DNA from: Phycisphaeraceae bacterium
Lineage (GTDB): Bacteria; Planctomycetota; Phycisphaerae; Phycisphaerales; Phycisphaeraceae
Length of the DNA: 64,000 nucleotides
Assembly (NCBI GenBank): GCA_020848195.1
Contig: JADLAP010000081.1
Span: forward strand, 8,822-72,821
Reading direction: 5' to 3'
The notes below the pieces were generated by a model. The model did not search any database, was not told the origin of the DNA, and was given only the letters and a program-made list of their open reading frames with translations. Positions 15,568 through 32,795 of the stretch are shown here, in pieces. Numbering within the stretch: position 1 is the first letter of the stretch; every line of letters begins with the position of its first letter. Position numbers and translations under genes: made by a program.

Positions 15568-15592
15568 TCAAACGCACGTGGGAAACGGGTCA

Positions 15593-15743: not shown

Positions 15744-15835
15744 GGCGGCAGGAGCAATACTTTTCATGTGTCCATGCTGAAACCGATGGACAAAGCTTGT
15801 CGTCAAGGTTGTCGTCGAAGAACCAGATCAGCCTG

Positions 15836-16606: not shown

Positions 16607-16672
16607 GACTGTTCTCCTTTGATGGGATCGCAATGACATATAACCGGATATCGACCATCCACTTCTGGAAGT

Positions 16673-17434
16673 TTACGGCCGATTGCTGAACTGGCCCCAT
16701 TCCTCGCTGTAGAGCCAGTTGGGGTAGGGGTATGCTAAGACGTCATACTTCTCGAAGGTGACATGGCCATCGGCCTTGGCTGTGGTCATGTTGGTGAGGT
16801 TCATGTGCCGGATATCGGAATAAGCCCCCATGGCATTGCCGACCACACAGTTGCCCGCGTAGTCATTGTTAGGCCAGTTGCTTTCCAGCAGTGCATAGGC
16901 CAGGCTGGGTTTCTTGATTTCCATACGACGGTCGATGGGCAACAAACCATGGGTGGAAGCACCACCAAAGCCATCACCGGGCAACGCGTAGGGCACATCC
17001 CAAAGGTAATACGGATTCTTTTTGGTATAGGACGGACAACGCATGATTCCCTTGTAGCCGGGTTTGATGGAGGCCCAGTGATTGTTGATGCCCGAGTCGG
17101 GATGGCCCACGATGTCGTCCAGGAAATCCCGCATCAAGTAATTCCACGGCCCAGGGGAGCCAGGCAGGCTGCGATTGGGCGCCGACAGGTTGCCGAAAAA
17201 GGACGGCATCCATTCCTTGTAGGCGTCACAATACTGGCTCCACGCCAGGATAATCTGCTTCTCATTACTGCCGCACTGAAGCTGCTGCGCCGATTGCCGC
17301 GCCGACTGCAACGCCGGCAGCAGAATGGCGATGAGCAGCGAAATGATGGAAATCACGACGAGAAGCTCAATGAGGGTGAAAGCTCGCTGGCCTTGATGTG
17401 GAGATTTTGTCAATTTGGCATGGCGCATCATCAT
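16673..17434 (-). CDS. DUF1559-type prepilin-leader protein (close paralogue of 15836..16606)
   Basis: Track ORF 16673..17440. AAGGAGA favours the ATG at 17434. ...[28 protein letters not shown] and [20 protein letters not shown]. About two thirds identical to its neighbour by eye. Confidence 0.85.
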
Positions 17435-17496
17435 GACCATTCTCCTTCTGGAGGCAGGGTGCTATAACCGGGGATCGACCATCCCGGTTCGCCGGT

Positions 17497-18270
17497 TTAC
17501 CGGTTCCTGAACTGGCCCCATTCGTCCGTAACCCACCATGCTGCGATGCTGAACACGGCGTCGTCATTGCGCCGGAACGACACATGACCATCGGCGATGC
17601 CCAGCGTGACGTTGTTGCCACCCATGTGGCGGAAATCCATGCGAGGCAGAATGTTGTAAATAAAGGCGTTGCCGGCGTAGGGCGGACTGTTGCTGTTGGA
17701 ATCCGCGAATACAACGCCTTTGCTCGGACCACGCAACTCGCCGCGTCGAAGAACGGGCAGCAAACTGCCAAATGGATCACCGCCTATGCCATTGAGCATC
17801 ATGCCGTAATGCAGTTCCCACAGATACCGGGCATACGGGGCCTGCTGCATGCTGGGACAGAGACAGATGCCCTTGTAATCCGCGGTATAGGTGGCGTTTC
17901 CGTTGCCGGGGTTGTTGTAATCCGCGATGGTAAAATCCAGGAACTGGCGCATCAGGAATTCCCAGTAGCCGCTGGAACCCGGCAGATACCGGTAGCTGTT
18001 GTCGGGAGTCGGAGCGCCGCCACGGCTGCCGACGAACGGGCAGAGCCATTCCTTATACGCGTCGCTGTACATGTTCCACGACAGGAGAATCTGCTTCACG
18101 TTCGTTCCGCACTGCACCTGCTGCGACGCTCGCCGCGCCGACTGCAGCGCCGGCAATAAAATCGCAATAAGCAGCGCGATGATGGAAATCACGACGAGAA
18201 GTTCGATCAGCGTGAATCCCTTGCCCAAAGTCAATCGAGGGGACCGAACCACATGGACATGTTGCGACAT
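17497..18270 (-). CDS. DUF1559-type prepilin-leader protein (more divergent paralogue)
   Basis: Track ORF. AAGGAG 8 nt upstream. ...[28 protein letters not shown] and [20 protein letters not shown]. Confidence 0.85.
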
Positions 18271-18281
18271 GGTGTTGCTCC

Positions 18282-19391
18282 TTAGCCGGCGTTGACAGGT
18301 GAGGGACCGAGGGACCCGCCGTCCCGGAAGTCCGCGTCGAACAGAATCGAAATGGGAACTGCGTTGGGATCGGCCCGGCGACGCTGGATGATCTCCGGCA
18401 CCGCAAGACCGAGTTTTTCCATGGGAATCACCACCGACGCCAGCGTCGGCGTGCTGCTCAGCCCCTGCGGAAACGCGCCATAGCCCACCACGCTGATCTC
18501 GCCCGGCACGTCGATGCCCCGCTCGCGCAACTGCTCAAGCACCTCCAGCCCCATGTTGTCCGATCCCACCACGATGGCGGTCGGACGCGGCTTGAGGACC
18601 AGGATGCGGTCTAGGCCGCGACGCACGGCGTCGCCGAGGCTGTCCCGTTCCCAGTCGCGCATCTCCACCACGACGGGCATCGGTTCGAGGTCCGGCTGGC
18701 AGGTCGCCAGGTTCGCCCACGCGCCGTGCCGCGGGCCGTTGCGGGTGCCCACGCGGTACTCGTTGCTTTGCGGGCCGTTGCCCGCCTGGTATTGCTTATG
18801 CAGCGGCGAGTTGATGTCGACCAGGCTGAACCACGCGATGCGGCTGTGGTTCAGCGCCGCCAGACGGTCGAAGACCATCGCCGCCGTGCGGTGTTCGTTG
18901 ACCCCGATGCTGTCGACGCCCTGCTGGAAGTCGTTGCCTCCGCAGAACACCAGAGGCACGGCCCGGCTCAGCTCGATCAGCCAGGGGCGGGGCAGGTTCT
19001 GACGCAGCACCAGTCCGTGCGGCCGAAACTCCTCGCACAACGCGCGAACTTCATCAAACGTCTGGACCTCTTCAATCTTGAGCTTTCCCCCCACCTCATC
19101 CATGCGATCTTCCAAACCTCGGAAGAACATCTTGCTCAGATAGCTCTTGATCGCTTCCTCGTGCATGGCGATCAGCGGCAACAGCACGCGGAGGCAATGA
19201 TCGGCACTGCCTCGACGCACGGCCGGGGGCATGACCATCGCGGATGTGGCGCGATAGCCCAGCTTCGTCGCCACCTGCCTCACGCGAGCCTGGGTTTCCA
19301 CCGAAACGCGACCAACGCCGCGAAGCGCGCGGGAAGCGGTCATCTGACTCACCCCCGCCCGACGAGCGATATCCTGAAGGGTCGGCGACAT
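18282..19391 (-). CDS. LacI-family transcriptional regulator
   Basis: Track ORF 18282..19427 trimmed to the ATG at 19391. N-terminal [28 protein letters not shown] followed by a periplasmic-binding-protein-like sugar-binding fold. The stop lies 11 nt before the next DUF1559 start. Confidence 0.85.
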
Positions 19392-19398
19392 AAGTGTT

Positions 19399-19427
19399 AA
19401 TCTATCACAGCCGCGCGCCCCGGTCAA
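19399..19427 (-). promoter_or_regulatory. sigma70-like promoter, apparently giving a leaderless LacI mRNA
   Basis: Minus strand reads TTGACC (19427-19422), 17 nt, TAGATT (19404-19399), AACACTT, then ATG (19391). Confidence 0.45.
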
Positions 19428-19566
19428 TCCCTTTTTCGACCTTCACGTGAACAATAGCACAACATATTGGCTAATTGTGGTTTATAGATCATCACCATTC
19501 CCCCGGGTCTTCCATCTCGCCGCGCACGAGCGTTATCGTGGCGATCCCCCGCAAGCCCCCCTATCC

Positions 19567-19603
19567 CCGCCGCTTGCGGCGTCGCGGAAACACTCTCCTC
19601 ACC
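19567..19603 (+). repeat. REP-C copy
   Basis: CCGCCGCTTGCGGCGTCGCGGAAACACTCTCCTCACC; 36/37 identical to 22516-22552 and in the same orientation. Confidence 0.7.
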
Positions 19604-19608
19604 AGTCT

Positions 19609-19655
19609 GGACTTCCCCACGATGGATAGGCGCGATTGCCCTTCGTGGGGAAGTC
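19609..19655 (-). terminator. hairpin downstream of the GH116 gene
   Basis: Perfect 14-nt arms GGACTTCCCCACGA (19609-19622) / TCGTGGGGAAGTCC (19642-19655), starting 12 nt after the stop at 19667. No clear U tract. Confidence 0.4.
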
Positions 19656-19666
19656 CAAACGGAAGG

Positions 19667-22237
19667 TCAATTGATCGTCAGCATCACTTCCACCTGTTGC
19701 CCGGTCTGGAGGCAAGTCTCCGTCGCCAGGGTAATCGTGACGTGGTTGGTGGTGTTCACATGAGAGGAGTCGATTGCCTGGCCGTTCACGGTGACGGTGG
19801 CGTTGCGTGATTGCACGTCTGCCGGCAAGACAAATGTCAGCGTGCGCAGACGTAGCTGGCCCCAACGCACAGCGATGGTTTCCCGCTGCGTGTGGTCGTC
19901 GCGTTGTTGCGTGAAGAGGCCCCAGCCCTCCCCGGCTGTGAAGAACGAAACATGGTCTTGAGGTCTCCAGATCGGAGCAAAACCGATCCGGCTTGCGGGA
20001 CCATCGTACTCAAATCCCTGGCATGCCAGCAGCACGCTCCAGATGGACATTGCCCTGGCGTAGAACTTGCCGCACTCATCGTCGCCGAAGGGGTTGCCGC
20101 TGTATCCCCAGGCGTCCCAGGACCGCGGGGGCTGTTCGCAGCCGGTCAAGCCGGTTCGCAGCCGGCCGTCGTAGCGGTTCGCCGCGGCGTACAGGACCGT
20201 GAAGGCTTCATCAAGCAAACCGGTCTGGATCATCAGGGCGGCGGCGGCGTATTCGAAGCCGCTCATGACCTCATCGGCGTAACCTATTTCATTGATTTGA
20301 TGCGAACCTGGGCGTCCCCCCCTGGGCCAGGCGCATTGCACGAGGCCCGCGTCCGCATCGTCCACGAACTTGCGCGGCAACTGCGGAATATCGCGGAAAT
20401 TCGGGCGGAAATTGTAGCCGAACAGGGATCGCATCGCGGTAAGGACGTGTTCTTTCGGATACAGCCAGCCGCCCCCCAACTGTCGCACCCACCATTGACC
20501 GAGAAGCTGGTCAATGTAGCAACCGGTCAAGTAGTCCTGCAGCGGCGGCGTGTCTGGAATCTGGATGAAGTATTCACCGTTGAATAGCTGCTGATCCTGG
20601 TTCCTGCCGCCATTTTCGCGTATCTGTCGATAGAAATCGGCCGAGGCTGTGTCTCTCTGACATCTGGCCATCTGTTCCGCGACAGCCAGTGCCGCGAGAT
20701 ACATGCTTCCCATCCACGAGGACGTGCCGCTCTGATCGCCGTCCATGCCATGCTGAGGCCCGGTGAGCATGCCGTCCGGGATGCCCGCCTGCAGACAGGC
20801 TTCGTCCGTCGTTGTTCCCGCGACATTCCAGCGGATAATCAGATAGTCCATGGCCCGCTTGATCGTCGGCCAATGTCGAGCCAGCCACGTGTTGTCCCGG
20901 CACAGAAGATGTTCGCGGAAGCAACTGAGGACAAAGCTGCATTGTCCGTCAAAAGCCGGATATTTGAAGGTGAAACGCACCGGCAACATGCCGTCGGGAC
21001 GGACGTTTTGAATATCTTCTTCGCGCATCGTCCGGCCAAGGGCTGGAAACAGCCGGGCGTGGGCTTGTGCATATCCCCAAACATGGGTGGCATTGCCCGT
21101 GCAGCAGCCTTCGGCGGGATGACATCCCTCCCAGGCGTAAAAGAAACCCCTGGCGTCCCAGTTGCACGTCATGCTCCGGAGGATGGCCACCTGTGAGCTG
21201 ATTCGATCGAGCAGCCAGTGTGGCAGGTTCGACGCATAGAAAGTCTGGTTGTAGAGCTGCGTCTGACTGGTCAGTTCCCGCTGACGACTGATGACGTCGC
21301 TGGCCACGCTCAAGGCGTCGGGCCACCAGTTCGCATACTGGTTTCCCTGATGGCCCTCCACGGGCGAAGTGTTGGGAAAGTGCCACGCGAGGATGAACGT
21401 GACGGTCTGTGTCTGGCCGGGTTCCAGCATGAATTGCACCGACAGCGCGCCGTCGTGGGTTGTCCCGGACGGCGCGGGGTTCGTCTGGTCAAGAACGGGA
21501 ATCCGGCCCGTGGCAGCAAACGTTTCGTAAAGCGATGACAGGTCGCTCCATGCCGCGCAGCCCTGGGCGTCCTGGGCGGTTGTGGCCAAAACCATGTCGC
21601 CATAATTCGCACTGTCCTTCGGCAACGTGGTCGTCATATGCAGCATGGTGGCCTTGCCGTTGCGGATCACACGATTGGCGTTGCCCTGGTAGGCAGCGCA
21701 GCGGCGACCCTCGATGCGTTCCTCGCCAGTGCGTATGCCGATCGCATTCTGCTGCGTCGCCAGAAAGCCGACCTCGATGCGGCTGTTGCTTTCATTGCTC
21801 GCGGTCACATTGAAAATCGCGCCGGGAATCGCGGAATCTTTCTCGTTCAGCGGCACCAAGGGACTGAACGCTTCCAGCTCCAGCCGCACGGGCAGTTCAG
21901 GATCGTCAAAGGCGTACCATCCGAAGGGATACTCGCCCGAGAATCGCAGAGCCTTCATGTGGGAGAATGGACCTTCGGCAACGGTCTGCATCGCGCGGAT
22001 CACCGGTGACGCCGATGACGCCTTGCATCGCACCGCGAAGAAGCTGTTCGGCAACGATATGGCCCGATAGTTCTGAAATATCTGCCACTTATGGCGCCTG
22101 GCCTGCCCGTTGATCTGGATGGGGCCGGCGGCGATCCCGCCAAGGGGAAGGCTGATCGCCGAAAGGTTGTCTTCCCGGTACACGCGGCGACGGCCGCGAT
22201 CGAATAGCTGAGCCTGGTCAAAGAGGTCGGGTTTCAT
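19667..22237 (-). CDS. GH116-family glycoside hydrolase (GBA2-type beta-glucosidase / glucosylceramidase-like)
   Basis: Track ORF. N-terminal LPLGGIAAGPIQINGQARRHKWQIFQNY and catalytic-region FYAWEGCHPAEGCCTGNATHVWGYAQAHARLFPALGRTMR match the conserved GH116 N-terminal and DUF608 signatures as I remember them. Confidence 0.85.
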   Translation of the reverse strand: MKPDLFDQAQLFDRGRRRVYREDNLSAISLPLGGIAAGPIQINGQARRHKWQIFQNYRAISLPNSFFAVRCKASSASPVIRAMQTVAEGPFSHMKALRFSGEYPFGWYAFDDPELPVRLELEAFSPLVPLNEKDSAIPGAIFNVTASNESNSRIEVGFLATQQNAIGIRTGEERIEGRRCAAYQGNANRVIRNGKATMLHMTTTLPKDSANYGDMVLATTAQDAQGCAAWSDLSSLYETFAATGRIPVLDQTNPAPSGTTHDGALSVQFMLEPGQTQTVTFILAWHFPNTSPVEGHQGNQYANWWPDALSVASDVISRQRELTSQTQLYNQTFYASNLPHWLLDRISSQVAILRSMTCNWDARGFFYAWEGCHPAEGCCTGNATHVWGYAQAHARLFPALGRTMREEDIQNVRPDGMLPVRFTFKYPAFDGQCSFVLSCFREHLLCRDNTWLARHWPTIKRAMDYLIIRWNVAGTTTDEACLQAGIPDGMLTGPQHGMDGDQSGTSSWMGSMYLAALAVAEQMARCQRDTASADFYRQIRENGGRNQDQQLFNGEYFIQIPDTPPLQDYLTGCYIDQLLGQWWVRQLGGGWLYPKEHVLTAMRSLFGYNFRPNFRDIPQLPRKFVDDADAGLVQCAWPRGGRPGSHQINEIGYADEVMSGFEYAAAALMIQTGLLDEAFTVLYAAANRYDGRLRTGLTGCEQPPRSWDAWGYSGNPFGDDECGKFYARAMSIWSVLLACQGFEYDGPASRIGFAPIWRPQDHVSFFTAGEGWGLFTQQRDDHTQRETIAVRWGQLRLRTLTFVLPADVQSRNATVTVNGQAIDSSHVNTTNHVTITLATETCLQTGQQVEVMLTIN

Positions 22238-22515
22238 GATTGAAGCAATTCAAGGAGGAAGGAAAAAAGAGAAAGGGACACAGGGGAAGTCCAGGGAAGT
22301 CCACCAAGGCACTGCCCATGCGCGGGGCGCAAAACCGGGAAAAAGAACGTGAATTCTATCGCATGGTCCATTTCCCGACGCACGCCGTGCAAGGTCATGC
22401 GTGTCGGCATGACGAACTGCGATCCACATGTATATACAGGTTATATAGGTAAACCCGCCCTGTCAATGCCGATGCGCCACGATGCGGAGCAACGACATAC
22501 GGATTCAACAGCGAG

Positions 22516-22552
22516 CCGCCGCTTGCGGCGTCGCGGAAACACTCCCCTCACC
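22516..22552 (+). repeat. REP-C copy
   Basis: CCGCCGCTTGCGGCGTCGCGGAAACACTCCCCTCACC, preceded by GCGAG, giving the CGAGCCGC core shared with the other REP families. Confidence 0.7.
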
Positions 22553-22769
22553 GGCCCCCGGTCCCCGGCTCCATGCCGATTGTCGTGATTCAGCCATTGT
22601 GTTACACCGTGCGCACCCAGCGTTCACCGGCTGCAAAGCCGTCCACACGCCGTCCGGGAGTCCTGTCCATGAACCGAAATCGAAATCACCGCCGCCGCGT
22701 TGAAACGACATGTCTTCAGTCGTTCATGGATGAAGGTGCAATGGCCATGGGGCCGGCGGAGGCGCGGAT

Positions 22770-23378
22770 ATGAATTTGCCGCCGTCCGATTCCGCGAGCC
22801 GCGACGTGTCGTCGCGGTCTTCGACTCCCGCCCCTTCCGCGGACGCGCCGGCACTGCTGCCCGGTCGGACCATCTGGCACATCACCTTCGGAACCTACGG
22901 TCGGCGGCTGCACGGAGCCAACGAACCGACCGTGGATCGTCAGCACAATCAGACGGGCGCCGCGTTTCTGCCGGTCGATCCGATCCGGCACGAGCGGGAA
23001 GAAAAGTCCATGCGCGGCTCGGCAGTGCGTTTGTCGGCATCGCAACGCGCGGTCATCGAAGCCTTGATGCCGGCGATTTGCCAACGTGGCCAATGGGACT
23101 ACCTGGTATGCGCAGCACCCGGACCGCCGGACGACGATCACGTTCACAGCCTTCTTGGCGCTGATCCGTCGGTGCATGGCAAGCGAATCCGGGAATGGCT
23201 CAAGCGCTGGCTGACCGAGGAACTGGACCAGCGCTGGGGGCGGCCGGAAGGTGGGAGCTGGTGGGCGGTGGGCGGATCGACCCGGGCGATCAAGGATGCG
23301 TGCTATCTGCGAAATGCGTATCTGTACATTGGCAGGCAGCGCACGACGCCATGGGTGAATCGGCTGCCGGGAGTGTGA
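22770..23378 (+). CDS. REP-associated tyrosine transposase (RAYT) / IS200-IS605 TnpA-like Y1 transposase
   Basis: Track ORF. WHITFGTYGRRLHG, HUH motif DDDHVHSLL, C-terminal GGSTRAIKDACYLRNAYLYIGRQ (Tyr motif). The left flanking repeat lies inside the first 18 codons, so the true start is uncertain. Confidence 0.7.
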   Translation: MNLPPSDSASRDVSSRSSTPAPSADAPALLPGRTIWHITFGTYGRRLHGANEPTVDRQHNQTGAAFLPVDPIRHEREEKSMRGSAVRLSASQRAVIEALMPAICQRGQWDYLVCAAPGPPDDDHVHSLLGADPSVHGKRIREWLKRWLTEELDQRWGRPEGGSWWAVGGSTRAIKDACYLRNAYLYIGRQRTTPWVNRLPGV

Positions 23379-23413
23379 TACGAAGACCGCGACGACACGT
23401 CGCGGCTCGCGGA
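22791..23413 (+). mobile_element. RAYT unit bounded by perfect 33-nt inverted repeats
   Basis: TCCGCGAGCCGCGACGTGTCGTCGCGGTCTTCG (22791-22823) and its exact reverse complement (23381-23413). Each contains the hairpin CCGCGACG-TGT-CGTCGCGG. Confidence 0.7.
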
Positions 23414-23431
23414 GTACGCCGATGCCGGCCC

Positions 23432-23535
23432 CTATCCGAACTGCGCAGCCTGGCTGTGTCAGTGGCTGTCGGGAATAAGGATGACCGTCTGTTCGGCGCT
23501 GAGGACGAGGTGGTGGTGCAGGGCGAGGCAGGCGG
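23432..23535. repeat. left copy of ~104-nt direct repeat (decayed duplicate of the PQQ/TPR gene 3' end)
   Basis: Hand alignment with 24624-24729 gives about 90 percent identity. On the minus strand it encodes ...HHHLVLSAEQTVILIPDSH*, with the stop at 23459-23461. Confidence 0.75.
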
Positions 23536-23555
23536 AATATGTGAATATGTACTTC

Positions 23556-23585
23556 TACCCTTTTCTCCGCTACCCTTTTCTCCGC
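23556..23585. repeat. 15-nt tandem duplication at the island boundary
   Basis: TACCCTTTTCTCCGC x2 (23556-23570, 23571-23585), preceded by AATATGTGAATATGT. Lies immediately 3' of the orphan gene stop. Confidence 0.6.
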
Positions 23586-23590
23586 CCATA

Positions 23591-24493
23591 TCATCGTAGC
23601 GACCGGGTGATTACTTCCATTTCCTCTTGTGGTATCGCGGACAAACCAAGTAGTTTGTGTAAGCGATTCCCACTTATTGCCAGTTTCAGATGCTGTGGGC
23701 AAATGATGTTTATCCCCCCCATGACTATCGTGTGGTGGCTTTCGTTTGGACCCTGCATAATCAGAAGGTTGAGATTGCATAACTCATGAATTGACTGAAG
23801 AGTGGATATGGTTGCATAACAAACTTGTGCGTCCGCTCCATAGGCGGTTCCACGGAGATTTTGCGCGCTCGAACTCGCTGAGAACAAATGAAGAAGGATA
23901 AATTGGGTGTATGTCAAAGAATCCGCAACATGTATGAGATGGTTGGCCTCAGCTTTTGTACAAGTTATGTCGAAGGCGACATTGGAGAATAAATAGCCAA
24001 GATAAAGGGCCTTTTTCTCCTCGTGTGTGTTCTTTGCGGCTAGCAGCGTACCCTCGAATATCTCCTCTGCTGAGCTAGGCTGCCTGCAACGAGTCTCAAA
24101 GAAATTGTCGCTTCGAAGCTTTTCGCCGTTCTTCAATCTTTCTTGAATCGATGAAATCGCGATGGAAGCGGTTGCTCCTACTCTTGCCGTTTCTCGGCTA
24201 GAAAGGAAACGCGTAGCGACATCACGCAGAACCCGAGTGACCCCGACACCAACCACTCCCGCGCCAGCTGCTACCGCCGGACCGCCGGCGATAAAGCCCA
24301 GCGCACCGCCGACAGCCGCGCCAGCGATATCGGAACCGGCTGAAATCAGGGACTCCATCTTGTTGTTGTTTTCGCCCATAAGGTCCAGCGCCTTCCGCTC
24401 AGTAGCGAGCCGCGTACGGGGGCAGAACTCACAAGACTTGATTCTACTCTTAACGTACGCGCCACTCATCCACTGCCATGGTTGGTTAGCCAA
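23591..24493 (-). CDS. orphan low-GC protein with glycine-zipper-like membrane segment (function unknown)
   Basis: Track ORF (alternative ATGs at 24379 and 24358). G+C visibly lower than the flanks. SDIAGAAVGGALGFIAGGPAVAAGAGVVGVGV followed by ~200 aa with no motif I recognise. AT-rich upstream region. Confidence 0.6.
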   Translation of the reverse strand: MANQPWQWMSGAYVKSRIKSCEFCPRTRLATERKALDLMGENNNKMESLISAGSDIAGAAVGGALGFIAGGPAVAAGAGVVGVGVTRVLRDVATRFLSSRETARVGATASIAISSIQERLKNGEKLRSDNFFETRCRQPSSAEEIFEGTLLAAKNTHEEKKALYLGYLFSNVAFDITCTKAEANHLIHVADSLTYTQFILLHLFSASSSAQNLRGTAYGADAQVCYATISTLQSIHELCNLNLLIMQGPNESHHTIVMGGINIICPQHLKLAISGNRLHKLLGLSAIPQEEMEVITRSLR

Positions 24494-24623
24494 TTATTTT
24501 GGGTCGAAGAGATTCTTCGTTGCTTGGCCAAGCGCCTTTTCTATCTTTACATGCTCAACTTGGGAATGCAAAAGGGGATGAGTACATATATTCTTCTTAT
24601 CGTTCGGCGGATGGAATCAGCTT

Positions 24624-24729
24624 TCTATCCGGCCTGCGCAGCTTGGCTGCGGTCACTGGCTGTCGGGAATAAGGATGACCGTCTGTTCGGCGGACAAGAC
24701 GAGGTGGTGGTGGAGGGCGAGGCAGGCGG
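24624..24729. repeat. right copy of ~104-nt direct repeat (functional 3' end of the PQQ/TPR gene)
   Basis: Contains the stop at 24653-24655 and the coding sequence for ...HHHLVLSAEQTVILIPDSQ*. Confidence 0.75.
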
Positions 24730-27700
24730 CGGGGTCGAGGGTTTGGGACAGCGGGCCGAGGTCGCGTTGGTCGACGAGGATGCCGGTGCGACGGTCGAGG
24801 GCGTAGAGGCGGTAGTGCAGCGGCTGGGGCGCGAGGGCGGCGGGTGGGGCTACGTTCCGAGCCACCGCAGGAGCTTCTTCCGGGGCTGCTTCATGGTCCA
24901 CTTCCGGTGCAGCTTTCGGGGCTGCTTCCGGGGCCGGGGGCACTTCCGGGGGCGGGAGGGGGGAGACGAGGATGGCCAGCGGGTCGGTCAGCAGCATGGC
25001 GGCCAGTTGATGATTGGGGAAGGCGATGGCGTCGTGCCAGAGGGTGCGGCCCTGGTGGTCGAGGGCAAGGGCTTTCCCCGGCGTGAGGATGTACCAGTGG
25101 TCCTGAGCGTGCTGGAGATCGGCGGGCGAGCCGGGGATCGTGGCGGGGGTGGTTATCTGGGCGACGGCGCGGCCCGCGACGAGGTCGATCAGTTGCAGGG
25201 AGCCATCCTGATTCTGAAGAAGCATGGCGTCGCGGCTGAGCAGGCATGAGGCGGCGGTCGGGGCGGAGGGCAGGGCGAGTCGCCAGGCCTGGTTGCCGGC
25301 GGCGAGGTGGTACGCGATCAGTTGCTGGCCGGTGACGTAGAGGAGCAGGCCATCGCCGCCGAGGGCGAGCCAGGCGATGGGATTGCGTGCTTCTTCGAGT
25401 TCGTGGATGGTGGATTCGCCGGAGAGGGGATCGAGGGCGAGGACGCAGCCGCTACGGGTGTCCTGCGTGCCGACCTGTCCAGCCAGCGCGAGGGCGTCGT
25501 CGTCCATGACGAGGTGGTCGAGTTGATCCATGGCGAGCATGCGTTGCCAGAGGACGTTGCCGGCGTGACGGTCGAGGGCGACGATGCGGCCTGCGTGGTC
25601 GGCGAGACAGACGACGGCGTCGTTGACAGCCATGAGATAGCCGGGTTCGATTTCCGGTCGGGCCAGTTCGATGCGGCGTTGACGGACGACGACGCCGGGG
25701 TTCATCATCTGGATGAACGCCTGCTGGGGCGCGGGGCGAAGGTCTTTGCGTTGCCGGGGATCGCCCGCGGCGTCGAGGAGCGCGGCGGCGTCGGCTTCGG
25801 GCCATTCGCGCAGGCCGGTGCGGCCATCGAGGGCGATCAGCGAGCCGGTCTCGTCGTGCCAGAGCAGCGCCTGTTCGCTGGAGAGAGCGAGCAATGTGAC
25901 ATGGCCCGGGGTGACGGGGGATTCCCAGGCGACATCGTAGTCAGGCGCGCGGCGAAGCTGAACGCGGTCGGAAAGCTGGATCAGGAACCGATCGCGCGGG
26001 CGATTGTCGGAGGCGGTGAACCGGGGCACGAGCAACTGGCCGGGCATGATGCGAGGCGAGGTCCAGGGCAGCGTCATCGCGGGCAGCGAGGACTGCTGAT
26101 CCTGCCTTCCCGCCAGTTGGGCGAGCCAGGCGTCGATGGGGGTGGGTTTGCCGTCGCGCAGGGGCACGAGTTGGGGGAACTGCCTTCGCGCGCGGGTGAG
26201 CCAGCGTCGAGCGGCGGAGGGTTGATGGAGGGATTCACGGATTTGCGCGATTCGGCCGACAATGTCGGCGCGGACAGCGTCGGAGGAAGCCATGGGATAC
26301 GCGCGGCGAAGCTGGGCCAGCGCGTCGTCGTGCAGTCCGCCGGCCAGCAGTTTGACCGCCGCCGCCTGACGCGCGGACACGGCGACGGGGGAGAGGGGAT
26401 ATTGTTCCGCCAGTTGGATCAACAGGTCGGCCGGTGCGTCGGCATTGCGCTGAAGCTGTTCGAGTTGCTGCTGGGCCTGCTGGTCGTAGCGCTGGTAGAG
26501 CGAAGGATAGGCACGGACGAGTTGGGTGATGCGAAGCGTGGCTTCGAGCCGGGCCTGGCGCGAGCCGCCTTCGTAGGGGAAAAGCTGGGCGGCGAGGCTT
26601 GGATCGTCCAGCACGTTCTGGAAATGTTCGATGGCCTGCTCCGGCTGGCCGCTGTTCTGGAGGAAGCGGCCCATGGTCAGTTGATAGATCACCTCGTCGG
26701 CGGGCGTGACGGCGGCGGCGGCGAGGCGGTCGAGCAACTGGCGTCGCGCGGCGACATCGAGCGACATGGACTGTTCGTACGGCGTGGCGGCGGCGCGGGA
26801 CTGGTCCTCGGCGTCATCGACGAGGCGGCGAATCCCGGCGAAGACCTGGGCCTGATCGTCGCCGGGTCGCGCGGCCGCGGATTGAGGATTGGGATTGGCA
26901 TCCGGCGACCGGCCAAGGCGCAAGGCGTCGAGGGCTGCATCGATGCCGGCGAGCATTTCGGCGGCGCGTTTGAGTTGTCCGGCAAGGCTGGCCAGCGACA
27001 GGCCCGGCCCGGGATCGCGGGGCCAGGCCGCCATCTGCGCCTTGAGCGACGTCACGGCATCCGGCCACGCCATGTAGCTCGTCAATTGTTGTTCGCCGCT
27101 GACCAGCACCTGTTGCGGCGCGAGGACCACATGGCCCGGCGCGTCGAGGGGCATGTCCCGCAGTTTGCGCCCGGTCGCCAGATCGAGCACCACAAGCTGA
27201 TTGCCCATGGCCACGGCGACCTGGTTGTCCGCGATCGCCGGCCGACCGAGCGGGTCCGGGGCCTGCGGCGTCGCCGGGGTGGGCGGGGCGAAGCGCCATC
27301 TGGCCGCCAGCGTATCGCCGTCAAGCAGGCGCAGGTCGCGGCCGACGGCGAGAATGTCCTTGCCGACGAGGTGGAGCTGGTCGCCGACCGCCAGGCTGGT
27401 GTCCGCCAGATCGCGCCGCCTGGCGCCGGTGTTCGGGTCCAGCAGCACGCCGGGTGAATCCATGTCGGGCACGATCAAGCCCGCGGGAACCAGCAGGGGA
27501 TCGCCGAGGTTCAGCGGCTGCGTCATTCGCCGGAGGTTGGCGGCGGGTGGCGCGGTTTCGTCGTTGTCGCGGGTGTCGCCGGGATGGACGACGAGCCAGC
27601 GGATGGCGCCGTCGCGGCCGTCGAGACACGTTACCGCGCCGAGGTTGTCGGCGACGTAGAGTCGTCCGCCATCGACGAGCATGTGTCCGAGCAATCCACT

Positions 27701-29143
27701 GCCGCCGCCGGAGCCGCCCATGTTGCCACCCACGGCCGCGCTGCTGAGGTGTCGCCGCCATAGCGGCCTGCCTGTCGCCGCATCCACCGCCGCCACGAAC
27801 GCGCCGTGGAAGCCCGACATCTGGTTCCGGCGGATCAGCACGTACAGCCGGCCCTGGTCCAGCGCCGGCGTGCCGTGGAAAAACGCCGTCGCCAGCGAGG
27901 CGTCCAGGTCCGACGGTTCGAGCTGCCACGTCATCTTTCCGGTTTGCCGGTCCACCGCCGCGAGGAACGTCCGGTGCAGGTTCAGACGCCAGCCGAAGCG
28001 CCAGTTGGACACCCGGCCCAGGACGGCGTACATCGTCGGGCCGTCGCTGACCACGCCGCGCTGGTCCGTCGTCCACTGGCTGATCACCGCGAAGTTGCCC
28101 AGTTGCGACGTCGGCGTCAGTTCCCGCGGCGCGTAGCGCCACAGTCGCCGGCCCGACACGCGATCCAGCGCGTCGAGCATCCGGCCATCGTTGATCACCA
28201 GCGTCTGACCCTCAATCCACGGCAGGCAGGGATACTGCGTGTTCCGTTGCGCGACGGCGCGCTGCATCGCGGGCTGGTTCTTCGCCTCATCCGCCTCGCC
28301 GGCCAGGGGAATGGACCACAACGCCTTTCCCCCCGCGTCCGTCAGTGCGGCGGCGGGATTCAGCGATGTCGTATTCGGCGGCGGCGTGCGGCTGCCGATC
28401 CATCCGGCCAGTTCCGCCATCGCCGCTTCGTCGCCGAGTTGATGCAGTTCGGTCCGGCTCTGCTGGAGTCGGCCGGCATCGGAGCCGAACAGCCCGGCCG
28501 CACACTGCAGGAGCAGCCAGCGCGTGCGCCGCGGCGGCAGGTCCGGATGACGGGCGGCTTCATCGAGCAGGATGGCGGCATCCATCGGCGCGCCGCGCTC
28601 GAGGTTCCATCCCGCCAGCAGCAGCGACGCTTCCAGTCCCGCCGGGCACAGGTCGAATCGCCGGCGAATGTCGGTCAGGGCGGCGATGTCCAGACCCAGC
28701 GTCTCCGTCGGGCCGACGTTTTTCGCTTCGTCCAGCAGACGCTGCGCCTCGGCGTTCCACCGTTGACGATAGGCTTCCAGCAGACGGGGATCGCCCAGCA
28801 ACAGAGTCCGCACCCACTGGCGTGTGTCGGTGTAGGTGTCCGGTGCGCCCTGAGGCGCGAGCTTCTGGCCGTGTTCGTCGAGGACGCGCTGGTACTGCTG
28901 GGCCGCTTCGGCGAGGCGATTCTGTTCCGTCAGACGTCGGGCTTCGTTGAGCAGGTCCGCCGCGGCCGGGGAGTCGTCGAGGTAGACCGGGGCACGCTGA
29001 CCGCCCGGCGATGCGGAAGCGTCCAATCCGAACTGCGCCCACGCCGGCGTCGCAACCCACCCGGTCGCCAGCATCAGCGCCGTCGCCGTCAGTCCACGCC
29101 GGCCGCACCTGAACCCGTGCTTCCCTGCCCAGAGCCAGTGCAC
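24653..29143 (-). CDS. giant secreted TPR plus PQQ-like beta-propeller repeat protein
   Basis: Track ORF 24653..29335. I prefer the GTG at 29143 (or the ATG at 29074) because the upstream 64 codons read through REPIN-B. Signal-like TATALMLATGWVATPAWAQ. Repeated WR/W-x-x motifs typical of PQQ/BamB-like propellers. EAAP-type low-complexity tract near the C-terminus. Confidence 0.8.
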   Translation of the reverse strand: MHWLWAGKHGFRCGRRGLTATALMLATGWVATPAWAQFGLDASASPGGQRAPVYLDDSPAAADLLNEARRLTEQNRLAEAAQQYQRVLDEHGQKLAPQGAPDTYTDTRQWVRTLLLGDPRLLEAYRQRWNAEAQRLLDEAKNVGPTETLGLDIAALTDIRRRFDLCPAGLEASLLLAGWNLERGAPMDAAILLDEAARHPDLPPRRTRWLLLQCAAGLFGSDAGRLQQSRTELHQLGDEAAMAELAGWIGSRTPPPNTTSLNPAAALTDAGGKALWSIPLAGEADEAKNQPAMQRAVAQRNTQYPCLPWIEGQTLVINDGRMLDALDRVSGRRLWRYAPRELTPTSQLGNFAVISQWTTDQRGVVSDGPTMYAVLGRVSNWRFGWRLNLHRTFLAAVDRQTGKMTWQLEPSDLDASLATAFFHGTPALDQGRLYVLIRRNQMSGFHGAFVAAVDAATGRPLWRRHLSSAAVGGNMGGSGGGSGLLGHMLVDGGRLYVADNLGAVTCLDGRDGAIRWLVVHPGDTRDNDETAPPAANLRRMTQPLNLGDPLLVPAGLIVPDMDSPGVLLDPNTGARRRDLADTSLAVGDQLHLVGKDILAVGRDLRLLDGDTLAARWRFAPPTPATPQAPDPLGRPAIADNQVAVAMGNQLVVLDLATGRKLRDMPLDAPGHVVLAPQQVLVSGEQQLTSYMAWPDAVTSLKAQMAAWPRDPGPGLSLASLAGQLKRAAEMLAGIDAALDALRLGRSPDANPNPQSAAARPGDDQAQVFAGIRRLVDDAEDQSRAAATPYEQSMSLDVAARRQLLDRLAAAAVTPADEVIYQLTMGRFLQNSGQPEQAIEHFQNVLDDPSLAAQLFPYEGGSRQARLEATLRITQLVRAYPSLYQRYDQQAQQQLEQLQRNADAPADLLIQLAEQYPLSPVAVSARQAAAVKLLAGGLHDDALAQLRRAYPMASSDAVRADIVGRIAQIRESLHQPSAARRWLTRARRQFPQLVPLRDGKPTPIDAWLAQLAGRQDQQSSLPAMTLPWTSPRIMPGQLLVPRFTASDNRPRDRFLIQLSDRVQLRRAPDYDVAWESPVTPGHVTLLALSSEQALLWHDETGSLIALDGRTGLREWPEADAAALLDAAGDPRQRKDLRPAPQQAFIQMMNPGVVVRQRRIELARPEIEPGYLMAVNDAVVCLADHAGRIVALDRHAGNVLWQRMLAMDQLDHLVMDDDALALAGQVGTQDTRSGCVLALDPLSGESTIHELEEARNPIAWLALGGDGLLLYVTGQQLIAYHLAAGNQAWRLALPSAPTAASCLLSRDAMLLQNQDGSLQLIDLVAGRAVAQITTPATIPGSPADLQHAQDHWYILTPGKALALDHQGRTLWHDAIAFPNHQLAAMLLTDPLAILVSPLPPPEVPPAPEAAPKAAPEVDHEAAPEEAPAVARNVAPPAALAPQPLHYRLYALDRRTGILVDQRDLGPLSQTLDPAACLALHHHLVLSAEQTVILIPDSQ

Positions 29144-29158
29144 CTGAAAAACCGGGCA

Positions 29159-29270
29159 TGACGAGCCGCGACCGTCAGGGAGCGGACCGCCTCCCAACAA
29201 GGGGGTGCCTCGCAACAACCAGCACCCCAGGCGGCGGAAGATCGTCCGCTCCCTCACGGTCGCGGCTCGT
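29159..29270. repeat. REPIN-B element
   Basis: TGACGAGCCGCGACCGTCAGGGAGCGGACCGC (29159-29190) and inverted partner GTCCGCTCCCTCACGGTCGCGGCTCGT (29244-29270). Confidence 0.75.
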
Positions 29271-29361
29271 AAAATTGGGATGCGCTGGCTGTGCTTCCCC
29301 GCCATGTCATCAGTGTAGCCGCTTCCCCGAGCCAAATGGACTTTGTTATCCTGTTGTTCAG

Positions 29362-30282
29362 ATGACCAGTCGATTCACCATTGTCGGGCTGGGCGAAGCA
29401 CTTTTTGACACGTTTCCAACCCAGCAGGTTCTCGGCGGAGCGCCCCTGAATGTCGCGGTCCACGCGCACCAGCTCGCCCAAGCCCGCGGCGGTCAGGGCG
29501 TGGTCGTTTCCCGCGTCGGACAGGACGCCCTCGGCGCCCGCGTCGCCGCCGAGCTGCGCCAGCGCGACATGACGGTCGACTACCTCCAGACCGATCCCGA
29601 TCATCCCACCGGCGAAGTCATCGTCGATGTCGACGACGACGGCCAGCCCGCGTTTGAGATCGCCGAGGATTCCGCCTGGGACTGGCTTCAGTTCGATCCG
29701 GATCTCGAAACGCTGGCCCGCCGCGCCGACGCCGTCTGCTTCGGCACCCTCGCTCAGCGCAACGCCCAGGCCCGCAACACCATTTACAGGTTTCTCTCCT
29801 GTTGCCGTTCCACGTCCACGCGGCTGTTCGACGTGAACCTGCGCCAGTTCTACTACAGCGCCCAGATTCTTCAGAAAAGCTGCGAACTGGCCAACATCGT
29901 CAAGCTCAACGATCAGGAATTGCTGATGGTGCTGTCGCTGCTGGGCATCGGCGGGCCGGAGGACACCGCGGAGTGGCGGATCACGAAACTCATCAAGACC
30001 TTCTCCCTGCGCGGCGTCGTGCTGACGCGCGGCGCCAAGGGCACGCAGGTGTTCACCGCGCAGGGTTCGCACGAGGACGAACTGGTGTCGTATCCGATGC
30101 AGGACGGCGCGGATGCCGTGGGCGCCGGCGACGCATGTTCGGCTGCGATCCTCGTCGCCGCCACGCTGCGACTGCCCATCGCCCGGACCGTGAAGCTGGC
30201 CAACCACTGCGGCGCGTTCGTCGCCGCCTCGCGCGGCGCCACCCCGACCCTGCCCGACAGCATCCTGCAGATGCTCCAATGA
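29362..30282 (+). CDS. PfkB-family carbohydrate kinase
   Basis: Track ORF 29158..30282 trimmed to the ATG at 29362. MTSRFTIVGLGEALFD...GGAPLNVA and C-terminal DAVGAGDACSAA (PfkB signature 2-like). Confidence 0.85.
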   Translation: MTSRFTIVGLGEALFDTFPTQQVLGGAPLNVAVHAHQLAQARGGQGVVVSRVGQDALGARVAAELRQRDMTVDYLQTDPDHPTGEVIVDVDDDGQPAFEIAEDSAWDWLQFDPDLETLARRADAVCFGTLAQRNAQARNTIYRFLSCCRSTSTRLFDVNLRQFYYSAQILQKSCELANIVKLNDQELLMVLSLLGIGGPEDTAEWRITKLIKTFSLRGVVLTRGAKGTQVFTAQGSHEDELVSYPMQDGADAVGAGDACSAAILVAATLRLPIARTVKLANHCGAFVAASRGATPTLPDSILQMLQ

Positions 30283-30326
30283 TGGTGCAAGTCTGACCGG
30301 GGGATACGTGAAAGTCCGGCGACAGC

Positions 30327-31088
30327 ATGGGCGGCATCACCGACAACCGCGATTCCCTTCAGGCCGAAGCTCGCACTTTTGACGCGATTGTGCGGGAAAA
30401 GGGCGATTTCAATCCGTTCGCCGACCGGGGCTGGGAGACGCTTCGCCGACGGTTCGAGGCGATGATCCCCGCCGAAGCCGCCGCGTTCGGTCTGCTCGAC
30501 GTCGGCTGCGGCAGCGGACAGTCGCGGCGCGTCTACCGCGCCGCCGCGGCGAAGTACGTGGGGCTGGACCTGTCCGAAGCCTCTGTCCGCCGCGCGCGGG
30601 AACTCGACTCCCGGCAACACTGGCTTCGCGGCGACGCGCTCGCCCTGCCGCTTGCCGATGCGTCGTTCGGCGTCGTGGCGTTCAGCAGCGTGCTGCACCA
30701 CGTGCCCGACCGGCAGGCGGCCTTGCGCGAAGCCGTGCGCGTGCTGCGGCCCGGAGGCTGGGTCTTCGCGTTCGATCCGAATCTGCTGCATCCCGCCATG
30801 GCGATGTTCCGCCACCCGCGCAGCCCGTTCTACCTCAAGGCCGGCGTCAGTCCCGATGAACAGCCGCTGTTGCCCTCCGTGCTGCGGCGCGAGCTGGCCG
30901 GCGCGGGGCTGATCGACATCCGCCAGCGATGCCAGAGCGACATCCCCTACCGCGACGTCGCCCCGCGCCTGATCCGCGCCTGTCTGGGCATCTACAACCG
31001 GGCGGACTGGATGATGGAAAAGACCGGCCTGGCCCGCTGGTTCGGCACGTTCGTCGTCACCGTTGGCCGAAAGCCCGCGATGGCCTGA
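30327..31088 (+). CDS. class I SAM-dependent methyltransferase
   Basis: LLDVGCGSGQS (motif I) and FGVVAFSSVLHHVPDRQAALREAVRVLRPGGWVF. Confidence 0.8.
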   Translation: MGGITDNRDSLQAEARTFDAIVREKGDFNPFADRGWETLRRRFEAMIPAEAAAFGLLDVGCGSGQSRRVYRAAAAKYVGLDLSEASVRRARELDSRQHWLRGDALALPLADASFGVVAFSSVLHHVPDRQAALREAVRVLRPGGWVFAFDPNLLHPAMAMFRHPRSPFYLKAGVSPDEQPLLPSVLRRELAGAGLIDIRQRCQSDIPYRDVAPRLIRACLGIYNRADWMMEKTGLARWFGTFVVTVGRKPAMA

Positions 31089-31098
31089 TACGCGATTG

Positions 31099-31518
31099 CT
31101 ATTCCAGCCTGCCGACCAGAAACGACGCCAGCAGCACAATCAGGACCAGCAGCGTCACCAGGGCGAAGACCCAGTCCCGGTCCAGCGCGAAGGCGACCAC
31201 GGAGACGCAGACGCGGAGCACCGGCGTGGCGATCAGCAGCAGCAGGCCGAGGGTCATGATCGACCGGCCGCTGCCTTGGCGCAGACCTTCTCCCATGTCG
31301 CGCAAGGTGAACGGAAACGCCGCGCCCGTGTCGGTCAGCCGGGGAAGGGCATGCGGGTCCGTCATGTATTCCGGGTGGTGGATCAGGGACACCGTGACGC
31401 CGCCGAGGATACAGAGGGAGCTGACGAGCAGGCCGAGGCGGAGCAGCCGGCTGAGGGTCTGTTCCATGCGGCTGAAGTCGATGTGCCTGGTTTTGGGCTG
31501 GGAAGTCGTCGGATTCAT
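31099..31518 (-). CDS. DUF1634-like small membrane protein
   Basis: Track ORF 31099..32052 trimmed to the ATG at 31518. 4-nt ATGA overlap with the TauE gene stop. ...TLGLLLLIATPVLRVCVSVVAFALDRDWVF... Confidence 0.7.
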   Translation of the reverse strand: MNPTTSQPKTRHIDFSRMEQTLSRLLRLGLLVSSLCILGGVTVSLIHHPEYMTDPHALPRLTDTGAAFPFTLRDMGEGLRQGSGRSIMTLGLLLLIATPVLRVCVSVVAFALDRDWVFALVTLLVLIVLLASFLVGRLE

Positions 31519-32354
31519 GGATGCAGCCCTTTGCGCAGCATCTGGAAGGCGACCAGCAGGAGCACGGCGGCGAAGGCGGCGCGGAGTGTGGAACTTTTGA
31601 GCCGGCCGGCGATGCGAGCGCCGAGGAGGGAGCCGCAGAGCACACCGACGGCGGTGGGGCCGGCGATGAACGGGTCGATGTCCCCGCGGGCGAAGTAGAC
31701 CCCGGCGCTGGCGGCCGCGGTGACGCCGATCATGAACGTGCTGGTGGCGGTGGCGACCTTGATCGGGATCCCCATGCTGATGCTCATGACGGGAACTTTG
31801 ATGATGCCGCCGCCGATGCCCAACAGGCCGCTGAGGACGCCGGCCATGGTGCTCAAGCCCGCGCCGAAGCCGGTGCGTCGCACGCGGTAGTCGCTTCGCC
31901 GTCCGGTGGCCTGGTCGAAATAGGAGGCATGGAGGGCCAGGGCGTCGGCGAGGCGGTCGCGCCGGATGCCTTCCGTTCCCGTGGTTTCGCGCCGCCGCCA
32001 CATCGCCAGCGCGGTGTAGACCAGCACGGCTCCGAAGGCCAGATACAGCCACCGTCCGGTGATTACGCCGGCGAAGAACGCGCCCGCCAGCGCTCCCAGG
32101 GTCGTGGCCAGTTCAAGGAACATGCCCACGCGGATGTTGACCATGTGATCCTTGATGTAGGCTGCGCCGGCCCCGCTGGACGTGGCGATCACCGACACGA
32201 TCGACGCGCCGATGGCGTAACGGATGTCCACGCCCAGCCACAGCGACAGAGCCGGGACGACAATAATGCCGCCGCCCAGCCCGAGGATCGAGCCGAACAC
32301 GCCCGCCGCGATGGAAATCGCGAAAACAACCGCCATGAACTCAACCGGCGTCAT
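31515..32354 (-). CDS. TauE/SafE (DUF81) family anion exporter
   Basis: Track ORF 31515..32390 trimmed to the ATG at 32354. GVFGSILGLGGGIIVVPAL repeated in the second half as GVLSGLLGIGGGIIKVP. Confidence 0.85.
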   Translation of the reverse strand: MTPVEFMAVVFAISIAAGVFGSILGLGGGIIVVPALSLWLGVDIRYAIGASIVSVIATSSGAGAAYIKDHMVNIRVGMFLELATTLGALAGAFFAGVITGRWLYLAFGAVLVYTALAMWRRRETTGTEGIRRDRLADALALHASYFDQATGRRSDYRVRRTGFGAGLSTMAGVLSGLLGIGGGIIKVPVMSISMGIPIKVATATSTFMIGVTAAASAGVYFARGDIDPFIAGPTAVGVLCGSLLGARIAGRLKSSTLRAAFAAVLLLVAFQMLRKGLHP

Positions 32355-32444
32355 CGCGCGCAACTTAGGGCAAACATGAAATCGTCGCAAGCGGAGAATG
32401 GATGGGTAAGGGCTGAATGTCCAAGCCCCAATGACGCATGACCG

Positions 32445-32470
32445 GACGCGCGGGCGGTTTGCCCGCGGCT
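32445..32470. repeat. single REP-A copy
   Basis: GACGCGCGGGCGGTTTGCCCGCGGCT, 25/26 identical to the arms at 7757-7835. Confidence 0.7.
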
Positions 32471-32792: not shown

Positions 32793-32795
32793 CGG

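Follow-up and report, generated by a model that had tools for sequence, protein, structure and literature searches.

An apparent single-gene, integrase-less mini-island in the 3' end of a giant PQQ/TPR gene of a Phycisphaeraceae bacterium, bracketed by a duplicated gene tail

Integration into the 3' end of a gene with regeneration of the interrupted end, tandem accretion at such a site, and remnants that are flanked by attachment (att) sites and carry no integrase are all known already. The closest described systems are the cis-mobilizable elements (CIMEs), as defined in PMC5704250, and 3'-end accretion of the kind formed by ICESt1 and its CIME at fda in Streptococcus thermophilus. The locus described here lies in a stretch of 64,000 nucleotides from a Phycisphaeraceae bacterium (Planctomycetota; GenBank assembly GCA_020848195.1, contig JADLAP010000081.1, positions 8,822 to 72,821 of the forward strand), hereafter the window, in which a segment of low guanine-plus-cytosine (GC) content carrying one gene, the cargo, is bracketed by two copies of the end of a gene for a giant PQQ/TPR protein. 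It is best read as an integrase-less, att-flanked single-gene mini-island, comparable to a CIME, of 1.09 kb, that occupies the very 3' end of the PQQ/TPR gene. What differs from the known cases is the one-gene scale, the lack of an integrase in any module examined, the long and imperfect imported tails, and the link of the cargo to the pool of integron cassettes.

The likeness to CIMEs lies in repeats in which the target gene's 3' end is contained, in the regenerated end, and in the lack of genes for integration and transfer; the modules stacked between successive tail copies at the urocanase gene hutU of two Acidobacteriota, where the same layout occurs, likewise recall CIME accretion. On the other hand, with its one gene and 1.09 kb the island in the window is much smaller than they are, no related element with an integrase was found, and the tails are long (about 57–183 nt), imperfect and variable. 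None of the four tail-bounded modules, that of the window included, contains an integrase, and it may be that they never had one, rather than that it decayed. A second group is formed by the islands that tyrosine integrases insert at the 3' ends of ssrA, transfer RNA (tRNA) and protein genes, among them the ssrA islands of Dehalococcoides (PMC3146451). Here too the 3' end of a conserved gene is targeted and foreign DNA gathers at one site; however, islands of the ssrA type carry their own integrase and extend over kilobases to tens of kilobases, whereas the window has no integrase in cis or elsewhere within its 64 kb, as judged by a motif-level scan in which no tyrosine-recombinase motif fell in a real open reading frame (ORF). 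As for integron cassettes, those whose function is not known include some that encode phage defence (bioRxiv 10.1101/2024.07.02.601719). The cargo resembles them in being a single, small, promoterless and co-oriented gene whose family includes true cassettes, but the copy in the window lacks an attC site, shows a 5' box in degenerate form only, has neither intI nor attI in its vicinity, and is bounded by host-gene tails.

Two further systems invite comparison. In the translocatable units of IS26, and in the complex class 1 integrons of ISCR1 with their duplicated 3' conserved segment (3'-CS), a circle is rescued by recombination with a resident repeat. The locus is similar in that its cargo lies between direct copies of a pre-existing sequence, as it would after a single crossover with a circle, and in that repeated events build arrays; it differs in that the repeat is a host-gene tail, there is no IS26 or ISCR transposase, and the one HUH-like ORF of the neighbourhood stands outside the repeats. 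The orphan C-terminal tips of Rhs and CdiA proteins are displaced variable toxin domains that lie, together with immunity genes, downstream of the main gene. These have in common with the present locus a displaced 3' region downstream of acquired DNA and an intact working gene end, but here a single conserved peptide is encoded by both tails, and the acquired gene stands apart from the host protein.

A preliminary description of the locus, made from the letters of the DNA alone, had proposed a low-GC inserted segment with a single gene, bracketed by a direct repeat of the host-gene end and free of any recombinase, and computation bears out all three points; the segment is foreign in composition and its gene is intact. 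This segment (23536..24624, minus strand, 1,089 nt) has a GC content of 0.495, where equally long tiles of the window have 0.636 +/- 0.033 (z = -4.2), and no tile of the 64 kb is lower; it has no match in plasmid DNA. The repeat, 23432-23535 versus 24625-24729, aligns over 104 and 105 nt (105 columns) with 89.5% identity and one 1-nt indel, is exact over at most 36 nt in a row (E = 9e-27 by blastn-short in the window), is present in two copies in total within the window, and abuts the low-GC segment directly on both sides. Scans with Pfam, NCBIfam and PADLOC, and a check of the ORFs of the insert, found no recombinase inside it. Nor was any plausible small partner ORF, sigma-70-like promoter or convincing terminator found there, and the parts of the insert outside the cargo coding sequence, 245 nt on its upstream and 55 nt on its downstream side, have no match in homologous loci or plasmids. 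Rfam has no match over 15000-35000. A tRNA or other RNA gene was considered as the insertion target and rejected, Rfam being empty; the lone tRNA-Val(GAC) called by ARAGORN at 25588-25665 (plus strand) lies antisense in the PQQ/TPR coding region, has no Rfam counterpart at the gathering threshold and is probably a false positive.

The host gene (24653..29074, minus strand) encodes a 1,473-amino-acid (aa) protein with a PQQ-like beta-propeller of BamB-like repeats (Pfam PQQ_2, E = 1.5e-33) and weak TPR matches, identical to NCBI protein P0059 of the source Phycisphaeraceae metagenome-assembled genome (MAG). Its last 25 codons and stop (24653-24655) sit in the right, proximal repeat copy (24625..24729, minus strand), which is thus the working gene tail; alignment, repeat search, translation and codon comparison give its reading as ...HHHLVLSAEQTVILIPDSQ before the stop, and a further 28 nt with a 6-bp hairpin follow. 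The left, distal copy (23432..23535, minus strand) is the displaced tail: it reads ...HHHLVLSAEQTVILIPDSH up to its stop at 23459-23461, with an end given as ...SACLALHHHLVLSAEQTVILIPDSH, and continues for 27 nt past the stop into the host downstream flank (...CTATCCGAAC, toward the putative repetitive extragenic palindromic (REP) sequence). Orthologues of the host protein, of 1,400-1,500 aa, occur in Phycisphaerae and other Planctomycetota at no more than 37% identity, and they share a C-terminal motif, ..HLVLS..T(I/V)V(I/V)P.., with ends such as DHRLILSTAESTIVVPDS and DHLLIADRQQIVLIPG. The duplicated 25 codons coincide with this motif and by all signs form a constrained functional end, so that an insertion at this point must restore the tail.

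The two tails encode the same peptide save for the terminal residue (Q/H). Within the repeat only three codons differ, CTC/CTG and TTG/CTC for leucine and TCC/AGC for serine, and all three changes are synonymous. The displaced copy had been called a decaying duplicate; it contains neither a frameshift nor a premature stop, and with only its last codon altered in meaning that label does not hold. The pattern rather suggests that both copies evolved as working ends, although codon usage does not tell the native copy from the incoming one. It also bears on the idea that the insertion itself copied some 104 nt of its target, as a very long target-site duplication or by template switching, the copies having later diverged by about 10%. 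In favour of such a duplication in situ, the repeat abuts the foreign segment on both sides, and the data of the window taken alone give no formal exclusion. However, the internal differences are all synonymous and include adjacent multi-base switches of leucine and serine, and the unused copy has stayed open; no bacterial transposition mechanism is known to yield duplications of 100 nt. Together with the clearly imported tails at hutU described below, this makes a duplication in situ very improbable.

The same figures speak to whether the locus is real. The source is a MAG contig, and the tail copies do resemble strain or species variants of one sequence, as might be expected if a metagenome assembly had joined strain variants by mistake. 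Yet the longest exact identity between them is 36 nt, so that both junctions need real supporting reads, the final k-mers of metagenome assemblers being usually longer than this, and the same layout is found in independent assemblies of other phyla. An assembly artefact is the least probable of all the explanations weighed here.

This recurrence in other assemblies is the strongest support for recombination in a gene 3' end with a replacement end supplied by the incoming DNA, a proposal of the preliminary description that the layout fits. All loci fetched for homologues of the cargo were scanned for flanking repeats and for re-occurring C-terminal peptides (gene calls in these loci are crude ORF calls). 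The scan singled out the window and two others, L027 and L028, the remaining matches being tandem paralogues and attC-like or REP-like repeats. In L028, from an Acidobacteriota genome, hutU has about 60% GC and falls to about 31% in its last 20 or so codons; it is followed by the cargo homologue, a second hutU tail (1549-1623), AbiTii, a VapBC pair, an AbiEii-like gene and a third tail (4542-4622). In L027, from Chloracidobacterium, the order is hutU, a PIN-like/DUF433 toxin–antitoxin pair, a 61-codon hutU tail, the cargo homologue, an AbiEii-like gene and housekeeping peptidases. The L027 tail copy also falls within an 88-codon ORF with its own ATG (7679-7945), which could be expressed as a small protein.

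The hutU tail copies share 82-85% DNA identity, with dS of 0.57-0.72 and dN/dS of 0.14-0.25 (pooled Fisher p = 1.3e-6), and the extra tail of L027 has a GC content at third codon positions (GC3) of 0.56, against 0.69 in the resident tail. These values indicate orthologous ends that were selected in other lineages, not local duplications, and the extra tails evidently arrived with incoming DNA. Their interleaving with small modules is a pattern of accretion, and this also speaks against a different origin of the left copy in the window, namely that a paralogue of the giant gene once stood there in tandem and that deletion, or replacement by foreign DNA, has left little more than this tail. That both copies have kept the reading frame and the downstream hairpin would agree with such a remnant; but in the loci examined each orthologue occurs once only, the resemblance between the copies has a sharp edge 25 codons ahead of the stop, and three interleaved hutU tails are what accretion produces. 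The paralogue is accordingly an extremely unlikely source.

Taken together, these observations favour the following course of events for the mini-island. An incoming and probably circular molecule would have brought the cargo with its own copy of the conserved tail, and one crossover with the chromosome inside the tail, most likely in the 36-nt exact core, would have integrated it. The product would then begin with the gene body and a hybrid tail that serves as the working end, followed by the cargo, a second, displaced hybrid tail and the original downstream flank; the reading frame would be restored, and the promoterless cargo would find itself downstream of an expressed gene and in the same orientation. 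That one crossover took place within an imported tail, by whatever enzyme, is probable, and the recurrence of the layout at hutU, stacked, with imported tails and with abortive-infection (Abi) and toxin–antitoxin cargo, argues for it.

Which enzyme could have acted is a more delicate question. A site-specific recombinase supplied in trans and recognising the conserved tail, in the manner of CIMEs, which keep att sites and lack an integrase, is a tentative answer that attracts somewhat less than even belief. It is consistent with the arrival of different modules at the same tail, repeatedly, and with a perfect 36-nt core in a repeat that is otherwise about 10% diverged; moreover, the inverted repeats near the ends of the insert would, in a circle, flank the tail in the way attP arms do. 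The competing explanation is insertion driven by RecA and homology: DNA of a related lineage, with the cargo already behind the orthologous gene, would have entered either as a circle or by homology-facilitated illegitimate recombination, with the tail of about 100 nt as the only arm. For this it can be said that no recombinase was found in any tail-bounded module or, by motif scan, in the window, that the exact runs of 36 nt in the window and 32 nt in the L027 pair suffice as a minimal RecA substrate, and that varying tail lengths are expected of random fragment ends. Furthermore, the VapBC pair of L028 forms a nested module bracketed by a 97-nt direct repeat of 92% identity (2957-3053, 3744-3840) that is not the tail of a housekeeping gene, and natural transformation is reported as a driver of cassette shuffling (PMC12614218). 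Nonetheless, the tail pairs are only 82-90% identical, and dS of about 0.6 speaks for distant donors. Homologous recombination drops steeply as divergence rises. RecA could not work efficiently on the L028 tails, with their exact runs of only 8-14 nt and such diverged donors, and the repeated arrival of different modules at the same tail looks site-specific. For these reasons the recombinase in trans is slightly favoured and the RecA route is considered unlikely, without being negligible.

The inverted repeats suggest yet another explanation. Two 20-nt arms found by repeat search (23545..23564, inside the left insert end, and 24570..24589) are complementary at 17 of 20 positions and sub-terminal, standing 9 nt from the left end of the insert and 35 nt from the right one; a tandem 15-nt duplication (23555-23584) overlaps the left arm. 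An inverted repeat near both ends of the insert, with an estimated probability of about 1e-4 of arising by chance at those positions, would suit a non-autonomous transposon bounded by terminal inverted repeats (a mobile insertion cassette) that landed beside the gene end, the tail repeat being unrelated to mobility. However, direct reading of the sequence outside the arms shows no target-site duplication, the arms are not at the exact boundaries, no further copy of an arm exists in the window, no flank of any homologue matches those of the window, and the 104-nt tail repeat is left unexplained. Such a transposon is extremely improbable.

Returning to the CIME-like mini-island, a number of observations count against it. 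Neither the motif scan of the window nor inspection of the tail-bounded modules identified a recombinase of matching specificity, and the lengths of the tail copies (about 57, 75, 104 and 146-183 nt) are unlike a single fixed attP. Of the roughly 12 different genomic settings in which the family occurs, no more than 2 show the tail duplication, and three loci from Dehalococcoidia have the cargo 10-44 nt past a gatA-type amidase gene with no tail copy and with unrelated downstream flanks; these loci do indicate that a place immediately after a conserved gene is occupied repeatedly, also where nothing is duplicated. In L028 the cargo starts 5 nt past the hutU stop, which leaves no room for inverted repeats like those of the window. 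The tails of the window give a dN/dS of 0.78 by the NG86 method, over 25 codons that are too few for a formal selection test; the value is this high because the TCC/AGC serine switch is scored as non-synonymous steps and because the boundary codon at the repeat edge is included, and the selection signal of the window itself amounts to four codons.

To these must be added that the evidence for insertion is indirect, since neither an empty site nor a closely related occupied one was found. Searches with the C-terminal 450 aa of the giant protein against GTDB species genomes and JGI metagenomes, and with a degenerate DNA pattern for AEQTVILIPD, returned nothing usable. The full-length protein retrieved a best orthologue of 37% identity whose synteny, the downstream side included, is not conserved, and the collections searched hold no close relative of this Phycisphaeraceae lineage. 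The word-indexed search with the C-terminal 450 aa (24656-26005) missed even the query protein, which the full-length query recovered, so that an empty result of this kind for a query rich in low-complexity sequence is not evidence of absence.

The origin of the cargo is clearer. Its closest homologues (L007-L009, 79% aa identity) resemble the DNA of the window from 14 nt before the ATG (24393) to the stop codon, and the coding sequence is the sole part of the insert common to homologous loci. In L007-L009 the gene is a textbook integron cassette, with GTTGGAC or GTTAGAC 10 nt before the ATG, GTCCAAC one base past the stop and then an imperfect palindrome ending in GTT, the attC; in L009 the bottom strand of this site folds better than the top one (-18.2 versus -13.9 kcal/mol, z = -3.6). 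Comparison with these homologues identifies in the window a degenerate 5' core box, GCTGGAC (24383..24389, minus strand), with one mismatch to the GTTGGAC of L009. The window retains only GCTGGACCTTATG upstream of the cargo, and to all appearances the box is a remnant and not a functional one. After the stop of the cargo attC is absent: the sequence reads TGATATGGGCGGAGAAAAGGG..., with no RYYYAAC box and no palindrome, and with a modest hairpin upstream only. A motif scan of the 64 kb and a repeat search revealed no intI, attI or attC array nearby.

The cassette rule, which demands complementarity between TTRRRY at the 5' end and the R'' box that the same cassette carries past its stop, was applied to 50 loci of the family and holds in five, where shuffled sequences lead one to expect 0.24. 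The agreement is perfect in L009, L011 and L017, one mismatch occurs in L007, and L001 is doubtful; the attC feature is present in L007, L009, L011 and L017, and attC-like sites were recognised by eye in L005 and L049. The family therefore includes true cassettes in several phyla, and the cargo of the window, judging from its sequence, came from the cassette gene pool, has lost its attC and is no longer a cassette. The attC-like regions that follow the gene in L011 (Acetothermia, 8808-8930) and L017 (Dehalococcoidia, 8655-8780) look homologous by eye; if they are, gene and attC moved together between phyla.

The cargo coding sequence (23591..24379, minus strand) runs from the ATG at 24379 to the stop at 23591 and specifies 262 aa, its start being the same in the NCBI annotation and in all homologues of the family alignment; the 300 codons previously given to it correspond to a mechanical TTG-to-stop ORF. 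The protein comprises an N-terminal glycine/alanine zipper hairpin and a helical domain of about 200 aa, in which the invariant or near-invariant motifs LSxRE..R.G, R.D.FF, AEE.FEG.L, HEEKK and EAN...LTYxQ are conserved. Its AlphaFold2 (AF2) model has a mean predicted local distance difference test (pLDDT) score of 86.9 and a predicted template modelling (pTM) score of 0.85, with pLDDT of only 47-57 in the glycine-zipper segment. The earlier statement that some 200 aa could not be assigned to any family stands: the protein has no match in Pfam, NCBIfam or PADLOC, nothing in the PDB by sequence profile, and no structural match by Foldseek, where the best E value is 1.9 in the PDB and 0.26 in BFVD. 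Matches in PHROG, to tape-measure proteins, cover the glycine/alanine-zipper segment only and are glycine-rich noise; the same segment gives sub-threshold matches to the membrane families DUF456, DUF1269 and DUF6861.

The family itself is large and widespread. The 58 homologues given by a word-indexed search all lack Pfam domains and informative names; one of them, of 72% identity, comes from Desulfomicrobium, a different phylum. A profile search of 1.84 billion representative proteins returned 2,285 clusters (at 50% identity) with E <= 1e-3 and 1,129 with E <= 1e-30; among the 150 best matches listed, almost all measure 255-290 aa and are covered over nearly their full length, and the longer members have no extra domain. 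A scan of GTDB species genomes located the family in 46 species of bacteria (Chloroflexota, Bacillota, Cyanobacteria, Pseudomonas, Acidobacteriota, Bacteroidota, Brocadia and others) and archaea (Methanobacterium, Methanoregula and a Nitrososphaeraceae archaeon), in which the gene usually lies below its flanks in GC. An origin in phages or plasmids was considered and rejected, the family occurring in none of 50,697 phage records, in 4 of 72,556 plasmids and in 2 of 2.9 million viral contigs.

The genes that surround the family members have no conserved partner among them, since 4 of the 49 loci is the most that any neighbour family reaches. In 36 of 48 loci the gene upstream points the same way as the family member (p = 7e-4), and the median gap is 94 nt. 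The neighbours include restriction-modification genes of the Eco57I and BsuBI/PstI families (Pfam), type I HsdR, Fic, DNA methylases, SNF2 helicases of the DrmD/ZorD type, ParE, Uma2, Abi_C directly upstream, NACHT NTPases and a TIR protein, as well as AbiTii, AbiEii and VapBC; next to the plasmid-borne homologues there are HEPN, an AAA ATPase and RelE/HigA. Housekeeping neighbours are common too, and the tally of defence neighbours is not background-normalised. Two loci have repeats of other kinds: in L039 (Methanoregula) the homologue is flanked by intergenic direct repeats of a family of about 50-120 nt with several copies, and in L046 (Hymenobacter) by a GC-rich, hairpin-forming direct repeat, neither of them attC-looking. 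L063, in which the homologue lies near a Xer-like integrase, was examined as a possible integrase-bearing counterpart of the mini-island and set aside, for it has no flanking repeat and no copy of the tilS tail.

A role in defence, or as a membrane toxin, is plausible for the cargo given the neighbourhoods of its homologues and their occurrence as cassettes. More specifically, composition, single-gene architecture, cassette carriage and the vicinity of defence and toxin–antitoxin genes raise the possibility, which is held with considerable reserve, of a stand-alone toxic or abortive-infection-type protein in which a glycine-zipper hairpin at the N-terminus would enter the membrane, controlled by the C-terminal helical domain. 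Against such a function stand the lack of likeness to any known toxin or defence family, the lack of a partner gene, the pLDDT of 47-57 in the zipper and the fact that the matches to membrane DUFs are sub-threshold only.

Beyond the displaced tail, on the side of the downstream flank, lies a further unit (22770..23413, plus strand) recognised by profile and repeat searches, which consists of an ORF resembling Y1/HUH transposases (22770-23378) and flanking hairpins, all outside the tail repeat. The preliminary description had placed a REP-associated tyrosine transposase (RAYT) some 20 bp past the left repeat; the flanking hairpin ends 18 nt before the repeat and the ORF itself 54 nt before it, and the family call is weak. 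The Pfam Y1_Tnp match has E = 0.16 (12.5 bits, cut-off 23) and the NCBIfam IS200 match E = 0.025 (14.8 bits, cut-off 55), both over residues 121-166 around HVHSLL; by eye, HVH precedes hydrophobic residues in the ORF, and YIGRQ lies close to its C-terminal end. The hairpins are perfect 33-nt inverted repeats at 22791-22823 and 23381-23413, found nowhere else in the window, and the left arm lies inside the nominal ORF. The ORF has no PDB sequence match and no plasmid homologue, and its single-sequence AF2 model is unusable (pLDDT 38.7). It is plausibly a RAYT-like or IS200-like unit. Its involvement in the insertion was considered and rejected: the profile matches are weak, the unit stands outside the tail repeats, and nothing ties it to the event.

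Two other features of the window deserve mention. On the minus strand at 15836-18534 there are three tandem paralogous ORFs (15836-16672, 16673-17461 and 17497-18534) that share a conserved motif at the C-terminus, ..ADGHVSF...WGQF.., and lie in a patch of somewhat lower GC content (about 0.545); they appear as tail matches only because they are paralogues over the whole gene. The second-lowest GC patch (about 0.53), also on the minus strand, at 49543-50271, contains a lone ORF of 242 aa with a signal-peptide-like N-terminus, downstream of a fumarase-like gene (47944-49395, identified by eye from its translation); it has no flanking repeat and no tail duplication.

If the reading proposed here fails, the locus is an ordinary decayed island remnant. 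In its boldest form, which is distinctly unlikely as a whole, promoterless defence or toxin modules would be "tail cassettes" that use a portable host-gene tail as their attachment or homology site and are themselves free of a recombinase, with the cargo representing a new membrane-acting family of new fold; a gene 3' end would then replace attC and attI, and read-through from a housekeeping gene would replace the Pc promoter. If the reading is true, very small defence or toxin modules would spread without a recombinase of their own by riding conserved gene tails, restoring the gene that they interrupt and borrowing its transcription. The cargo family, which is large, unnamed and structurally unmatched, is a reasonable candidate for a defence-gene screen, and one that is cheap to test.

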